A DNA stretch of 64,000 nt from Eubacteriales bacterium. Its GTDB lineage: Bacteria > Bacillota > Clostridia > Oscillospirales > CAG-272. Every line of letters begins with the position of its first letter. The first letter of the stretch is position 1. The DNA is taken from the NCBI GenBank assembly GCA_045605765.1, contig JAZUQQ010000027.1:1095-65094 (forward strand), written 5' to 3'. Below, piece after piece: positions 47,638 through 51,529 of this stretch. The translations under genes were made by a program, and so were the position numbers. The notes beneath the pieces are model-generated. The model searched no databases and was not told the origin of the DNA. It saw nothing but the letters and a program-made list of their open reading frames with translations.

Positions 47638-48971
47638 AGAAAAACGATCTCTACACGGTAGAAATAAGCGATATGAATAACCTCGGCGCAGGCATCTGCA
47701 AGATAGACGGCAAGGTCGTCTTTGTGCGCGGCGGCGTTACGGGGGACAAGCTTGAAATCGGCATAATAAAAAATCTCTCTGACTATGCGGTAGCGAGAGT
47801 GAATAAGATAATCGAGCCCTCTCCTATCAGAACAGAAAACGATTGCCCGTCCTTTAAGCGTTGCGGCGGTTGCTCCTTCCGCCACGTCAGATACGAAAGC
47901 GAAAAGCTTTTCAAGAAAAACTACGTCGAAAACGCCTTCAAAAAGGTCGGACTGTCTGTAAAGATCGAGGACGTGATCTCGACCGAGTCGCCCGACGGCT
48001 ACCGAAACAAGGTGCAATACCCTGTCGGAGAAAATTGGAAGATCGGCTTTTTTGCCGAGCACTCGCACGATATAGTCGAGGTTTCTGACTGCGCAGCGCA
48101 GGATAAAGAATTTTCCGCAATTCTCGATGAAATAGTTAAATTCGGCAAGGCAAACAAGATCCCGACCTACGATTTCGAAAGCGGCAAAGGGCTCGTGCGC
48201 CATGTTTACCTACGTAAAGGTCGCGGAAGCGGCGAGATCATGGTCTGCCTCGTTGTAAACGGGGAGAGCCTTCCAAGCTCGGACAAGCTTTGCAAAGCCC
48301 TTGCCGAGCGCTTCCCCGCCATCAAATCCATAATTTTGAATATAAACGAAAAGCGCACGAACGTCATTCTCGGCGAAAAAAACATCACCCTTTGGGGCAA
48401 GGATACGATAGAGGATATTTTCTGCGGACTGAAAGTAAAAATCTCGCCGAAATCATTCTATCAGGTCAATCGAGAGTGTGCTGAGCTTATCTGTAAAAAA
48501 GCTGCAGAGTTCGCAGAGCTTATATCTGGGGAGCGGCTCGTCGACCTTTTCTGCGGCATCGGAACGATCGGTCTTTCAATGATAAAGGACTTTCCGGACG
48601 CCGAGCTTCTAGGAGTCGAGATAATTCCCGAAGCGGTCGAAAATGCAAAAGAAAACGCTACGGCAAACGGAATGACGAACGCGAAATTCATCTGCGGCGA
48701 TGCAAATTCTCCCGAAATTACGGGCGCAGACGTCGTCGTTGTCGATCCCCCTCGCAAGGGCTGCTCGAGCGAGCTTATAAAGCGCATCTCGGAAATCTCG
48801 CCATCGCGTGTGATCTACGTTTCCTGCAATCCTGACACCCTCGCGCGTGACTGTAAGCTCTTCGACGCCGAAGGATACAAGGTCACACGAGCACTGGCGG
48901 CGGACATGTTTTCACGGACAGGGCACGTTGAGAGTGTCGTTTGTCTGACGCGGTCAGACAAAGCGACGTGA
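47634..48971 (+). CDS. rlmD: 23S rRNA (uracil-C5)-methyltransferase RlmD/RumA family
   Basis: TRAM domain, Cys cluster CPSFKRCGGCSF, DLFCGIGT, DPPRKG. The last six codons (RSDKAT) come from the inserted DNA. Confidence 0.9.
   Translation: MKKNDLYTVEISDMNNLGAGICKIDGKVVFVRGGVTGDKLEIGIIKNLSDYAVARVNKIIEPSPIRTENDCPSFKRCGGCSFRHVRYESEKLFKKNYVENAFKKVGLSVKIEDVISTESPDGYRNKVQYPVGENWKIGFFAEHSHDIVEVSDCAAQDKEFSAILDEIVKFGKANKIPTYDFESGKGLVRHVYLRKGRGSGEIMVCLVVNGESLPSSDKLCKALAERFPAIKSIILNINEKRTNVILGEKNITLWGKDTIEDIFCGLKVKISPKSFYQVNRECAELICKKAAEFAELISGERLVDLFCGIGTIGLSMIKDFPDAELLGVEIIPEAVENAKENATANGMTNAKFICGDANSPEITGADVVVVDPPRKGCSSELIKRISEISPSRVIYVSCNPDTLARDCKLFDAEGYKVTRALAADMFSRTGHVESVVCLTRSDKAT
48924..48950 (+). 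repeat. left 27-bp direct repeat (rlmD 3' end)
   Basis: cacgttgagagtgtcgtttgtctgacg, identical to 50407-50433. Confidence 0.9.
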
Positions 48972-49186
48972 TATAACGCCTTACGGCGCGTGATATGGAC
49001 ACCTGCGGTGTCGTGATATAGAACGCTTCGCGTTCGTGATATGTCGCTTGCGCGACGTAAGGCGATAGCGTTCCACGCGCACAAAGTGCGCATATCACGA
49101 AAGCCAACGGCTTTCCATATCACGCGCGACGAAGTTGCGCTATATCACGACGGCAACGCCGTCCATATCACTCCACCGTAGGTGGA
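48936..49186. repeat. heptamer-linked hairpin ladder (GTGATAT x4 … ATATCAC x4, ten variable GC hairpins)
   Basis: GTGATAT at 48968, 48990, 49013 and 49036. ATATCAC at 49092, 49117, 49142 and 49165. Between them are hairpins with 4-7 bp stems and 3-4 nt loops, each with a different sequence. Confidence 0.85.
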
Positions 49187-49201
49187 CTAAAAGGAGTATT
49201 T

Positions 49202-49555
49202 ATGGCAAAAACCTCACACGGGCTCGCGATCGAATTTGCAGTTGAGATTACTGAATTGTGCTCAAAAATAAAGGGACGACCTGAATATACAAAACAACTT
49301 ATTCGCAGTGCTTCTTCGATCAGCGCAAACATTGCAGAAGCAAAATATGCCGAGAGTAATGCCGACTTTGTTCATAAGCTCGAAATAGCCCAAAAGGAAG
49401 CAAACGAAACCGAAACGTGGCTTAGTGTTTTGTGTAAGAGCGGTATTATTGATGAGCTCACTTTCAAATCCTTGCGAAACAAGTGTGGTAAGATCAGAAG
49501 AATGTTGATTGCTTCGATTACTACTGTTAAGTCCAAAATGAACGGACAAAAGTGA
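49202..49555 (+). CDS. four-helix-bundle protein (23S rRNA intervening-sequence protein / Avd-like family)
   Basis: 117 aa with the pattern …QLIRSASSISANIAEA…F..KL.IA.KEANETETWL…. SD aaaggag. Confidence 0.8.
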   Translation: MAKTSHGLAIEFAVEITELCSKIKGRPEYTKQLIRSASSISANIAEAKYAESNADFVHKLEIAQKEANETETWLSVLCKSGIIDELTFKSLRNKCGKIRRMLIASITTVKSKMNGQK

Positions 49556-49662
49556 TTTTTGAGCAAAACTCGAAAGTGCATTTTACAGCTGTTTAGTATA
49601 ACATATCGAAAGGCTTATCATATGATAGACAGAAGTAAACAAGAAGATAAGGAGAAATTAAA

Positions 49663-50382
49663 ATGAAAATTTTATCCATTGGAAACAGCTTTTCCCAAGA
49701 TGCGCAAAGATATCTGCATTGCCTTGCAAAACACGACGGTACAGAATTGAAGACCGTAAATCTTTATATCGGTGGTTGCCCTTTGCGAAAGCATTATCTT
49801 AATATGCTGGATAATAACACCGCGTATGATTTTGAATTTAACGGAGAACAAACAGGCATCAAGGTTTCCATCTGACAAGCACTTGTCAGCGATGATTGGG
49901 ATTTTATCACCTTACAACAGGCAAGTCCTTTGAGTGGACAATATAAAACCTTCTCGCCCTATATCGAGGCACTGGCTGAATATGTCAAAAATTATTGCCC
50001 TCACGCAAAAATTCTGATACATCAGACATGGGCATATGAAAATGGCTCTGAAAAACTGATGCGCTTGGGTTATGTTTCTCCCAAAGAAATGCTATCTGCC
50101 ATTTGCGATTGTTATAGCAAAGCGGCGCAGAATATCAATGCTTACGGAATCATCCCTTGCGGTGAAGCCATGATGCAGGCTTTGGATATGGGTATTGGAA
50201 AGGTACATCGCTATACTTTTCATGCATCTCTTGGAGTAGGCAGATATTTGTTGGCGCTTTGCTGGTATAAAATCCTGACGAAAAAGGATATCACAGGCAA
50301 CTCGTTTAACGATTTTGACGTGCCCGTAACCGAACAAGAAAGAGAAATCGTAATAAAAGCGGTAAATTCTATAATGGTATAA
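49663..50382 (+). pseudogene. SGNH/DUF4886-like hydrolase gene interrupted by one in-frame TGA (49873-49875)
   Basis: The two track ORFs (49663-49875 and 49930-50382) are in the same frame. The read-through sequence …IKVSI*QALVSDDWDFITLQQASPLSGQY… is continuous and family-like. The N-terminus has ILSIGNSFSQDA. Confidence 0.7.
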
Positions 50383-50406
50383 ATTATACCTTTTACTCTT
50401 TTTACC

Positions 50407-50433
50407 CACGTTGAGAGTGTCGTTTGTCTGACG
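50407..50433 (+). repeat. right 27-bp direct repeat
   Basis: Identical to 48924-48950. Confidence 0.9.
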
Positions 50434-50483
50434 AGAAAATAACCGTTCTTTTATTTACCAAGCACAAAGAAAGGACAATGCAA

Positions 50484-50816
50484 ATGGCAGAAATGAAACT
50501 CCACCACGCTCCGTTTGAGATGATAAAAAGCGGAGAAAAGACAATAGAGCTTCGTCTGTTTGACGAAAAGCGCAGACTTCTCGAGATCGGAGAAAAAATT
50601 GTATTTACCGACACCGCCACGGGAGAAAAGCTGACAAAAACAGTTTTGAAGCTGCATACATTTGACAGCTTTGACGAGCTATACAAAGCTCTGCCTCTTT
50701 TACAATGTGGTTACACCAAAGAAAATATTGGTACGGCGCATCCTCGCGATATGGAAGCGTATTATTCCGCGGATCAGCAAAAAAAATACGGTGTTATCGG
50801 AATAGAGCTTGAGTGA
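50484..50816 (+). CDS. ASCH-domain protein
   Basis: …HHAPFEMIKSGEKTIELRLFDEKRR… typical ASCH N-terminus. Start uncertain (50478 or 50484). Confidence 0.75.
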   Translation: MAEMKLHHAPFEMIKSGEKTIELRLFDEKRRLLEIGEKIVFTDTATGEKLTKTVLKLHTFDSFDELYKALPLLQCGYTKENIGTAHPRDMEAYYSADQQKKYGVIGIELE

Positions 50817-50923
50817 CAACTCCAAATACAATTACTTTTGACTCTCTTTACATCAAAGCCCATTGACAAAAGTACACTAAACATATAAAATATATATATC
50901 CAACTTCTCAAAGGAGAAAACAG

Positions 50924-51529
50924 ATGGAAAAGAATTTTGAAAAAGAGCTCCCCGAAGGATACACCGAGGTGCTTCACATAAACGCGAAAGATAAGAAGCT
51001 CGGTCTTATTTTCAACGCCATCGCGCTCGTAGTTATGGTCGCAGTGCTTGCTATTGCTTTTGTTCCTGTAATGATACGCGGAAATATGACCGTAGAGAGC
51101 GACGAGCTCTTTGCCGCTTACGTAGTCTTTATAGCTTCAATGCTTATTTACATAGTTCTTCACGAACTCGTACACGGAGTTGCATACAAGCATATGACCG
51201 GCGAAAAGCTCACCTTCGGTATGAGTTGGAGCTGCGCATTTTGCGGCGTTCCAAACATATACGTCTACCGCAGGACTGCGCTTATCGCTTGCGCCGCTCC
51301 GCTTGTACTGTTTTCGGTAATACTCATTCCGCTAACCGTTTCACTCTATTTCGCAAGCACGCTTTTCTACTTTATAAGCGCGTTCGTTTTAGGTCTGCAT
51401 CTTGGTGGTTGCTGCGGAGATCTCTATTTGATCGGTCTTTTGCTCTTCAAATTTAAAAATGAAAATGTGCTTGTGCGCGACACAGGTCCAGAACAGTTTT
51501 TATATGTTCCAAGCGATATGAAGCTTTAA
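50924..51529 (+). CDS. DUF3267-like putative membrane zincin peptidase
   Basis: HELVHG motif within a polytopic membrane protein. Confidence 0.7.
   Translation: MEKNFEKELPEGYTEVLHINAKDKKLGLIFNAIALVVMVAVLAIAFVPVMIRGNMTVESDELFAAYVVFIASMLIYIVLHELVHGVAYKHMTGEKLTFGMSWSCAFCGVPNIYVYRRTALIACAAPLVLFSVILIPLTVSLYFASTLFYFISAFVLGLHLGGCCGDLYLIGLLLFKFKNENVLVRDTGPEQFLYVPSDMKL

Follow-up and report, generated by a model that had tools for sequence, protein, structure and literature searches.

A divergent, double Gut-1-type hairpin array in front of an Avd-like four-helix-bundle gene at the rlmD end of a clostridial genome

The 64,000-nt stretch of DNA analysed here, referred to below as the window, belongs to a Eubacteriales bacterium of the class Clostridia (contig JAZUQQ010000027.1 of assembly GCA_045605765.1), and all coordinates are window positions. 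Between rlmD and a small gene encoding an Avd-like four-helix-bundle protein the window carries an array of short GC-rich hairpins, which are joined by a constant heptamer that reads GTGATAT in the left half of the array and ATATCAC in the right half. The array is very probably a divergent, double copy of Gut-1, a multicopy intergenic repeat of gut Clostridia, with four sense and four antisense units that converge. The array and the gene behind it consist of the following parts, where numbers preceded by L designate loci retrieved from other genomes.

48968..49056, + strand: left half of the array, in which a hairpin (H1-H4) comes after each of four GTGATAT heptamers
49057..49076: centre of the array, 20 nt, gtaaggcgatagcgttccac, kept in L071, L121-L123, L292, and L118
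49077..49186, - strand: right half of the array, hairpins H5-H9 linked by four ATATCAC heptamers (GTGATAT on the - strand)
49191..49204, + strand: ribosome-binding site AAGGAG and ATG of the four-helix-bundle gene
49202..49555, + strand: Avd-like four-helix-bundle gene of the PF05635/TIGR02436 family, 117 aa

On the + strand GTGATAT starts at 48968, 48990, 49013, and 49036, and ATATCAC at 49092, 49117, 49142, and 49165, which gives a period of 22-25 nt; all eight positions are exactly those given in the original prediction. The stem is 4 bp long in H1, 6 bp in each of H2 and H3, 5 bp in H4, 6 bp in H5, and 7 bp in H6, while H7 has six pairs including one G-T and H8 and H9 have 6 bp each. If H0, a palindrome in front of the left half that is treated together with the cassette below, is counted as well, all ten stem sequences are different, and the loops are 3-5 nt long. 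The rlmD stop codon, TGA at 48969-48971, falls within the first heptamer, and H0 does not follow the stop codon as had been supposed. Judged from the heptamer positions, the TGA codons of the left half, four in all, span all three reading frames.

The ten GC hairpins and the four plus four heptamers described earlier are indeed present, and they are far beyond what chance would give. The two strands of the whole window hold 24 copies of the heptamer, compared with 6.5 expected from shuffles, and eight of the 24 are packed into 204 nt. Eight perfect GC hairpins are found in the 250-nt stretch containing the array, which is the maximum for the window, versus at most four anywhere else. The predicted RNA fold of the array has an energy of -127.7 kcal/mol for the + strand and -134.1 kcal/mol for the - strand, around 40 kcal/mol better than dinucleotide shuffles and corresponding to z-scores of -9.6 and -9.7, respectively. 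A promoter scan gave no sigma-70-like promoter in or beside the array, and the proposal that the heptamers act as extended -10 elements was given up, as there is no promoter-like site in the array and no promoter enrichment over shuffles upstream of such arrays in other genomes. A ladder of terminators was likewise rejected because no T run follows any of H0-H9; a scan for intrinsic terminators gave three weak matches, not above shuffles.

The Gut-1 RNA motif (Rfam RF01706) was described by Weinberg et al. (2010; PMC2864571). Its occurrence in human gut metagenomes is the sole published statement about it, and the description gives no function, convergent pairing, or protein partner (PMC2864571). 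No further paper on Gut-1 was found, nor any literature linking Gut-1 or PF05635 to heptamer arrays. The Rfam gathering score for Gut-1 is 50 bits, and at this threshold the window gives no match. A permissive search matches the left half at 48966-49047 on the + strand (25.1 bits, E = 0.0075) and the right half at 49112-49193 on the - strand (18.3 bits), and in both cases the alignment covers model positions 1-77, which is the full length. Close relatives of the window array score 33-43 bits, while the GTGATAT arrays of L037, L036, L005, L009, L013, L016, L030, L097, and L115 reach 52-63 bits; among these, the L037 array has 6 + 4 units, is built like that of the window and scores 54.7 bits.

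As expected for Gut-1, three or more short hairpins follow one another in the window array, linked by a constant heptamer of the GUGAWAU type. It shares with Gut-1 the tandem arrangement of short hairpins, the covarying stems of free sequence, and the constant heptamer, for which the Gut-1 consensus is GUGAAAU. The seed alignment includes composite elements of the GUGAUAU type beside tRNA genes, and both Gut-1 and the family of the window array belong to gut Clostridia and are found near tRNA genes and terminators. The original prediction held that no element with such an architecture had been described. That claim of a categorically new architecture had to be withdrawn, because Gut-1 has exactly the layout hairpin-GUGAAAU-hairpin-GUGAAAU-hairpin and related GTGATAT arrays pass the Rfam threshold. 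The window copy differs from typical Gut-1 in its scores (25.1 and 18.3 bits versus 50), in having G or A and not U as the first base after the heptamer, in lacking the closing helix formed by TATATTCGCC and GGCGAATATA, in its two equal halves, and in being fused to an att-like (attachment-site-like) junction at one end and to a ribosome-binding site at the other. Since it falls below the curated score, it is filed as a divergent subtype and not as a plain member. Rfam lists Gut-1 under the type 'Gene; sRNA' (small RNA); with regard to a stand-alone small RNA, no promoter was found at the window array, and a terminator abuts many of the composite arrays described below.

Genomes were searched for three GTGATAT heptamers spaced 14-19 nt apart, and at least 120 genome loci matched, against a chance expectation of about 10 as estimated from the pattern length and the size of the collection. 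The matches listed come nearly all from metagenome-assembled genomes (MAGs) of gut and rumen Clostridia, e.g., Oscillospiraceae and Acutalibacteraceae, and genuine hairpin arrays occur in about 100 species-level genomes among them. A perfect stem of at least 5 bp is present in 92% of the spacers between heptamers, compared with 1.4% of shuffled ones. On viral contigs, only two of 120 pattern matches are hairpin arrays, the remainder being plain tandem repeats, and a link to phages is thus not indicated.

The dominant composite form of the array is 170-180 nt long and consists of four GTGATAT units, TATATTCGCC, and three or four oppositely oriented units with GGCGAATATAACTG at the end. The sense half contains degenerate heptamers (GTTATAT, GTGGTAT, GTTCTAT), and when these are counted the commonest layout is four sense and four antisense units, as in the window. 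The heptamers are spaced 16-25 nt apart in composites, and the number of heptamers per array ranges from 3 to 20. An array of 20 GTGATAT units in L107 (2490-2952) displays a 68-nt superperiod in which three hairpin types are repeated, and lies about 2 kb from a gene for the signal recognition particle (SRP) RNA (L107 97-364).

Composite arrays have a fixed polarity. In all 17 two-sided arrays that adjoin a tRNA gene the sense half comes first and then the antisense half, in the direction of the tRNA, and the window has the same order, from rlmD through the sense and the antisense half to the next gene. The first heptamer lies 31-39 nt past the tRNA 3' end in 13 of 18 cases; composites starting 31-52 nt past tRNA 3' ends are seen in L009, L013, L021, L027, L030, L043, L044, L048, L049, L061, L097, L111, and L120. 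Composite arrays are also found beside 5S/23S rRNA and SRP RNA genes. A bidirectional terminator directly abuts the element in 15 of 54 composites, and it seems to be a part of the element that travels along, as we read the same terminator hairpin beside different tRNA genes (Gln in L049, Arg in L061). The element is multicopy: L035, L041, and L109 contain two arrays each, several loci come from single MAGs, and many arrays are found at contig ends. The neighbours are unrelated housekeeping genes, except that the same ABC-transporter gene is found in seven loci. Clustering of the neighbours revealed no recurring recombinase; only syntenic housekeeping genes and the four-helix-bundle gene recur. 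When the arrays linked to tRNA genes were inspected for an island bounded by att sites, the 1-7 kb downstream contained no repeat of the tRNA 3' end.

The original prediction described the structure as conserved, the stem sequences as free, and the linkers as constant, and this is borne out by the comparison of related arrays. RNAalifold applied to 18 composite arrays found 14 pairs that have changed on both sides, i.e., compensatory changes. Among the close relatives of the window array 58 changes are located in loops or flanks, two are compensated, and three break a pair, and units have been gained, lost, and shuffled. The hairpins are thus under selection. The stems are nearly pure Watson-Crick helices (1531 Watson-Crick, 6 G-T, and 15 A-C out of 1563 pairs), and there are 311 distinct spacer sequences. 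The numbers of G-T and A-C pairs are uninformative with respect to strand, so that the functional RNA strand can not be read from wobble pairs.

It was earlier proposed that the two halves of the array pair with each other in one RNA or single-stranded DNA, the four GUGAUAU with the four AUAUCAC, into 7-bp helices separated by four-way junctions. Such a fold could juxtapose the stop codon of rlmD and the beginning of the gene downstream. The minimum-free-energy fold of the window copy does pair three of the four heptamer pairs, and 4 + 4 is the commonest count in the composites as well. The arrangement is nevertheless not conserved: L118 and L125 have no left half, the units number 4 + 5 in L122, L123, L292, and L293, and many arrays are one-sided. 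Moreover, the degenerate heptamers in the sense half of composites are not compensated in the partner half, and the conserved 10-bp pairing of TATATTCGCC with GGCGAATATA topologically excludes such pairing between the halves. Pairing of the halves is therefore considered highly improbable as the active structure.

Repetitive extragenic palindromic (REP) units are dispersed and clustered in alternating orientation as bacterial interspersed mosaic elements (BIMEs) near gene 3' ends in Enterobacteria and Pseudomonas, and are recognised by REP-associated tyrosine transposases (RAYTs). The clue to the recognising protein was a single-copy gene flanked by repeats. The arrays resemble REP/BIME in being dispersed, palindromic, and located near gene ends. 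They could accordingly be a selfish or structural repeat that settles near terminators, where the hairpins act as DNA, in cruciform or single-stranded form, or as passive 3' or 5' structures of RNA and the PF05635 gene is a frequent but incidental neighbour since both settle in the same permissive sites. The multicopy occurrence, with several loci per MAG and many at contig ends, the intergenic positions among unrelated housekeeping genes with no recurring recombinase, and the unit gain, loss, and shuffling between close relatives would fit this. So would the near-perfect palindromes with no excess of G-U, the lack of promoter enrichment, the narrow range of distances to the tRNA end, and the travelling terminator. 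However, such a repeat leaves unexplained why distant PF05635 clades, as described below, each have their own heptamer array directly upstream of the gene. Neither a transposase or RAYT-like gene nor a target-site duplication was seen, no tRNA 3'-end repeat was found downstream, and arrays seem to be kept at apparently orthologous loci (the seven with the ABC-transporter neighbour), which points to stability and not to active mobility. A REP palindrome is furthermore itself conserved, with GTAG at the 5' side, while in the arrays the palindromes vary and the linker is conserved, and the associated gene encodes a four-helix bundle and not an HUH transposase. With 311 distinct spacers and no recurrent transposase among the neighbours, the arrays were not assigned to REP/BIME, and a selfish or structural origin of this kind is regarded as possible but doubtful.

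Two other kinds of repeat were also considered. A CRISPR array has repeats of 24-40 nt and non-palindromic spacers; here the constant part is 7 nt, the variable part is palindromic, and the period is 22-25 nt. The WATCACW heptads of the omega protein of inc18 plasmids, which had been mentioned as a parallel, share the ATCAC core with the array and are likewise repeated 7-bp units in direct and inverted orientation upstream of genes. An omega operator consists of at least two contiguous heptads, whereas the heptamers are 22-25 nt apart in the window and 16-25 nt apart in composites and are separated by covarying palindromes, and the neighbouring protein is not a ribbon-helix-helix protein. Both candidates were thus rejected.

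The 117-aa protein encoded directly behind the array matches the profiles of Pfam PF05635 (E = 8.4e-26) and TIGR02436 (E = 2e-28). Its nearest solved relatives are 2RLD (E = 6.5e-20) and 2GSC, with five chains per entry, and the protein is basic (19 K+R versus 13 D+E). An AlphaFold2 model with a predicted local distance difference test (pLDDT) score of 92.7 was matched by Foldseek to 2RLD with a template-modelling (TM) score of 0.84, and to Avd (4DWL and 8UB7), both alone and as chains of the solved ribonucleoprotein complex of diversity-generating retroelements (DGRs; 8UB7), with a TM score of about 0.7. Pfam, TIGRFAM, and AlphaFold2/Foldseek thus agree with the earlier assignment of an Avd-like four-helix-bundle gene, with the array ending 4 nt ahead of its ribosome-binding site. 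An exact look-up of the protein gave no identical record, and PADLOC did not match it to any defence family. While the fold is that of Avd and the nearer solved relatives have five chains, the sequence identity to Avd is 14-17%, and repeated heptamers are not known in DGR RNA. The locus was not classified as a DGR, as the genes scanned between 46.5 and 64 kb revealed no reverse transcriptase, template repeat, or variable repeat. The open reading frames (ORFs) in 23S rRNA intervening sequences, from which PF05635 has its name, belong to the same family and also lie by a structured element at stable-RNA genes. In contrast to these, the window element is not inside an rRNA gene, and no long stem of the RNase III type surrounds the ORF.

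All intact close relatives that were examined (L071, L121-L125, L292, L293, and L298) have the array immediately in front of the gene. In the intact close relatives among the loci that were fetched by means of the protein alone, the ribosome-binding site is always directly adjoined by 3-6 units of an ATATCAC hairpin array, and the string ggagtatttatggc at this site is kept in all relatives. The distance from the end of the window array to the ribosome-binding site is 4 nt, and from the last heptamer to the ATG it is 31 nt in relatives of the window type. In a clade with about 50% identical proteins (L005, L006, L017, L074) the gene is directly preceded by a composite array of the same orientation, and one at about 38% identity (L146, L158, L161) has ATTTCAT/ATTTCAC hairpin arrays upstream; in L146 the array scores 42 bits against Gut-1, on the opposite strand. 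Among more distant homologues, some genes are preceded by convergent pairs of AGTATY hairpin arrays, and others by as many as 35 heptamers in uninterrupted tandem, mostly [GA]TGAATT, that extend into the start codon. Within the 200 nt upstream, a 6-mer occurs four or more times for 14 of 44 PF05635 genes, compared with 3 of 79 control ORFs. Exact 6-mers were used in this test since a version allowing one mismatch was too permissive, the controls scoring as high as the genes. The link between gene and array is thus found in several clades, although it is not exclusive.

The loci with uninterrupted heptamers (L129, L140, L151, L153, L154, and L168) have 5-35 units ending at, or within about 20 nt of, the PF05635 start codon. 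The units are mostly [GA]TGAATT and in one case GGGAATT, each with a GTGA or ATGA in which start and stop codons overlap, and by our reading of the translations several of these genes follow directly after an hsdM-like gene of type I restriction-modification. In two distant clades (L005, L146, L158, and L161) a near-palindromic box, ATAGGAAAYATTAT(CC), is found between array and gene and may be an operator. In L017, at about 780-875, a TTGACA-17-TATAAT sequence directed toward the gene can be seen by eye, overlapping a divergent TTGACA-18-TATTAT directed toward the array. Many of the database entries for the protein (P0002-P0028) have lengths of 151-198 aa, since gene callers take the array for an upstream part of the ORF, and most contigs with the gene are shorter than 2 kb, as if assemblies break there. 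Going by a figure legend (PMC10910872), short repeat arrays before PF05635 genes might be taken for CRISPR-like ones.

The array and the gene are part of a small insertion at the 3' end of rlmD. As originally proposed, the insertion is bounded by direct repeats and the array sits at its left edge. The remaining features are as follows.

48924..48950, + strand: 27-nt direct repeat, copy 1, at the rlmD 3' coding end, att-like junction, CACGTnGAnAGTGTCGTTTGTCTGACG, identical to 50407-50433
48940..48962: H0, perfect 10-bp palindrome, TTTGTCTGAC gcg GTCAGACAAA
49556..49613, + strand: conserved 58-nt tail, putative leader of the next cassette gene, found after the gene stop in L071, L121-L123, and partly in L124
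49663..50382, + strand: DUF4886 gene, cassette cargo, in two parts (49663-49875 and 49930-50382) with a stop codon at 49876
50383..50433, + strand: right-end motif (..ATTATACCTTTTACTCTTTTTACC), 27-nt repeat copy 2 (50407-50433), and the original rlmD end, ..TRK followed by the stop codon

From repeat start to repeat start the cassette measures 1483 bp, and it contains H0, the array, which begins 17 nt past copy 1 of the 27-mer, the PF05635 gene, the 58-nt tail, the broken DUF4886 gene, and the right-end motif. The two DUF4886 parts match N- and C-terminal stretches of the Pfam model, and the split gene is either a pseudogene or a sequencing error. The left arm of H0 is the end of rlmD, and the right arm is made up by the first bases of the cassette. 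H0 is present at every 27-mer that is followed by an array and is absent from right-hand and native junctions. It was originally counted as a unit of the ladder; being partly rlmD coding sequence and present in all array-bearing junctions, it behaves as an insertion junction, and we infer that it is a recombination junction or core.

The nucleotide identity to L071 is 40-55% in rlmD, climbs to 86-94% in the stretch that begins at about 48920 and includes the left half of the array, is about 88% across the four-helix-bundle gene, and drops past about 49555. The GC content changes from about 50% in rlmD to 37-42% over 49200-51000. The module of array and gene is found behind rlmD in lineages whose RlmD proteins are only 41-54% identical, with unrelated genes downstream. 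In L292, where RlmD is 90% identical to that of the window, three 27-mers delimit two different cassettes (2884-5128), and their cargo, an ORF of 237 aa and DMP19, differs from that of the window. L293 has two 27-mers (3700-5239), and a 27-mer bounds the cassette in L123 too. The right-end motif AATATACCTTTTG..ACC precedes every non-native 27-mer (L292, L293, L294, L123). A second 27-mer was not found within 7 kb in L071, and neither an integrase nor a reverse transcriptase is encoded among the genes scanned from 46.5 to 64 kb. Going by these comparisons, very small cassettes of 1-1.5 kb that carry no integrase have moved into, and become stacked at, the rlmD end.

The conserved tail (tttttgagcaaaactcgaaa..tttacagc.gtttagtataacatatcgaaagg) is also seen before unrelated cassette genes, e.g., in L292 at about 3040-3100, and in each case extends into their ribosome-binding site; it may be a portable leader or promoter. 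In L118 another hairpin array, with GTGAAG linkers, is located directly behind rlmD (3440-3530, - strand) and continues into GTGAAGAAAAGGAG and the start codon ATG of a 122-aa ORF for which Pfam gives no match. The rlmD cassettes resemble integron cassettes and integrase-less cis-mobilisable elements in being small, apparently promoterless, and arranged in tandem at a single site, with the same recombination sequence at the end of each and a junction that can form a hairpin. Unlike in integrons, there are no inverted R''/R' core sites around the hairpins, the site is the coding end of rlmD, and no integrase was identified. The hairpins were also rejected as attC sites (RYYYAAC ... GTTRRRY), since they are flanked by the same heptamer in direct orientation.

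The position of the array, 17 nt past the 27-mer/H0 junction of a repeat-bounded cassette, suggests another role for the heptamers, namely as arm-type or architectural att sites in DNA recombination, with the four-helix-bundle protein as an excisionase-like or architectural factor. The same rlmD site is used in the distantly related lineages mentioned above, tRNA-adjacent arrays have a fixed polarity, and the protein is small and basic. The array spans about 230 bp, and the arm region of lambda attP is of similar size. Like the arm sites of a lambda-type attP, the array adjoins a junction, here that of the 27-mer and H0; no integrase was found in the 46.5-64 kb region, which covers 15 kb on the downstream side in the window, nor does one recur in the vicinity of arrays in other genomes. 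Most arrays are not beside an att-like repeat, no tRNA 3'-end direct repeat was detected within 1-7 kb, and double-stranded sites would need no covarying palindromic spacers. A function in recombination is for these reasons held to be rather improbable.

The closeness of array and ribosome-binding site might instead reflect a leader acting in cis on the RNA, with no dedicated protein, by which the transcript of a cassette gene lacking a promoter is insulated, processed, or stabilised. The ribosome-binding site would be kept free by local hairpins that lock up the sequence ahead of it, and RNase Y-like cuts in the AU-rich heptamers would leave a protective 5' hairpin. In all relatives of the window type the last hairpin is only a few nt from the ribosome-binding site, there is no promoter between rlmD and the gene, and the TGA codons of the left half cover the three frames. 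L118 has the same array before a different gene and the GTGAAG array before a third one, and in L036 the GTGATAT units run into GTGAAAAAGGAGG and an ATG. On the other hand, most composite arrays follow a terminator and precede no gene, and in L017, L005, and L146 the array lies upstream of what we read as a promoter-like sequence of the gene. Insulation would moreover need no strict conservation of the heptamer, and the orientation of the heptamers relative to the gene varies between clades. A leader of this kind is an unlikely explanation, if somewhat less so than a function in recombination.

The explanation we tentatively prefer, at somewhat less than even odds, is that the element works as a folded single strand that exposes the heptamers to the pentameric Avd-like protein. 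In the window this strand would most likely be the rlmD read-through transcript, because no promoter-like site is found between rlmD and the downstream gene. Each GC palindrome would form its own local hairpin, and the different stem sequences would avert mispairing between units. The constant heptamers would then be the only exposed single-stranded segments, placed side by side, and would resemble the uninterrupted tandem heptamers before PF05635 genes of other phyla. They would serve as recognition sites for an oligomeric factor acting in trans, for which the best candidate is the pentameric Avd-like protein encoded behind the array. Binding beside the ribosome-binding site would set, or feed back on, the expression of the downstream gene, and solitary arrays at other places of the genome could be recognised by this protein too, by analogy with the recognition of REP by RAYT. 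The single-stranded form, the binding partner, and the regulatory outcome are thus proposed as parts of one model.

Several observations weigh against this model. For about 95% of the GTGATAT arrays retrieved, the fetched stretch, which is at most 8 kb, contains no PF05635 gene. In L118 the homologous array and ribosome-binding site precede a DUF2310 gene instead. If the promoter-like sequences that we read between array and gene in L017, L005, and L146 are used, the array is outside the mRNA of the gene. The near-absence of wobble pairs is unusual for RNA and possibly reflects a constraint on both DNA strands, and the number of heptamers varies from 3 to 20 and is not a fixed five.

More broadly, Gut-1 arrays and the plain tandem heptamers of other phyla might be the cognate ligands of PF05635 pentamers outside DGRs, an extension that is conceivable and at present speculative. 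If it is true, each subunit would read one exposed GTGAWWT-type heptamer and the hairpins would act as spacers. Protein and repeat would then make up a widespread complex of the kind that RAYT makes with REP or Avd with DGR RNA. A function would be gained by an RNA motif and a protein family that are both orphans, and with the latter by the ORFs in 23S rRNA intervening sequences.

Gut-1, an Rfam entry since 2010, has neither a function nor a host or partner assigned to it, and PF05635 is a large family that is functionally known only through its relative Avd in DGRs. The present analysis adds that a Gut-1 element is usually a convergent double array whose polarity behind tRNA genes is fixed, and that a family of very small integrase-less cassettes is stacked at the rlmD end. 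Three results join the two function-less annotations into one hypothesis that can be tested at the bench: Gut-1-type arrays are found directly before PF05635 genes in several clostridial clades, distant homologues have other heptamer arrays in the same place, and array and gene move as a module into the rlmD 3' end. The main interest lies in the recurrent pairing of the array with an orphan Avd-like protein family, which is directly testable.

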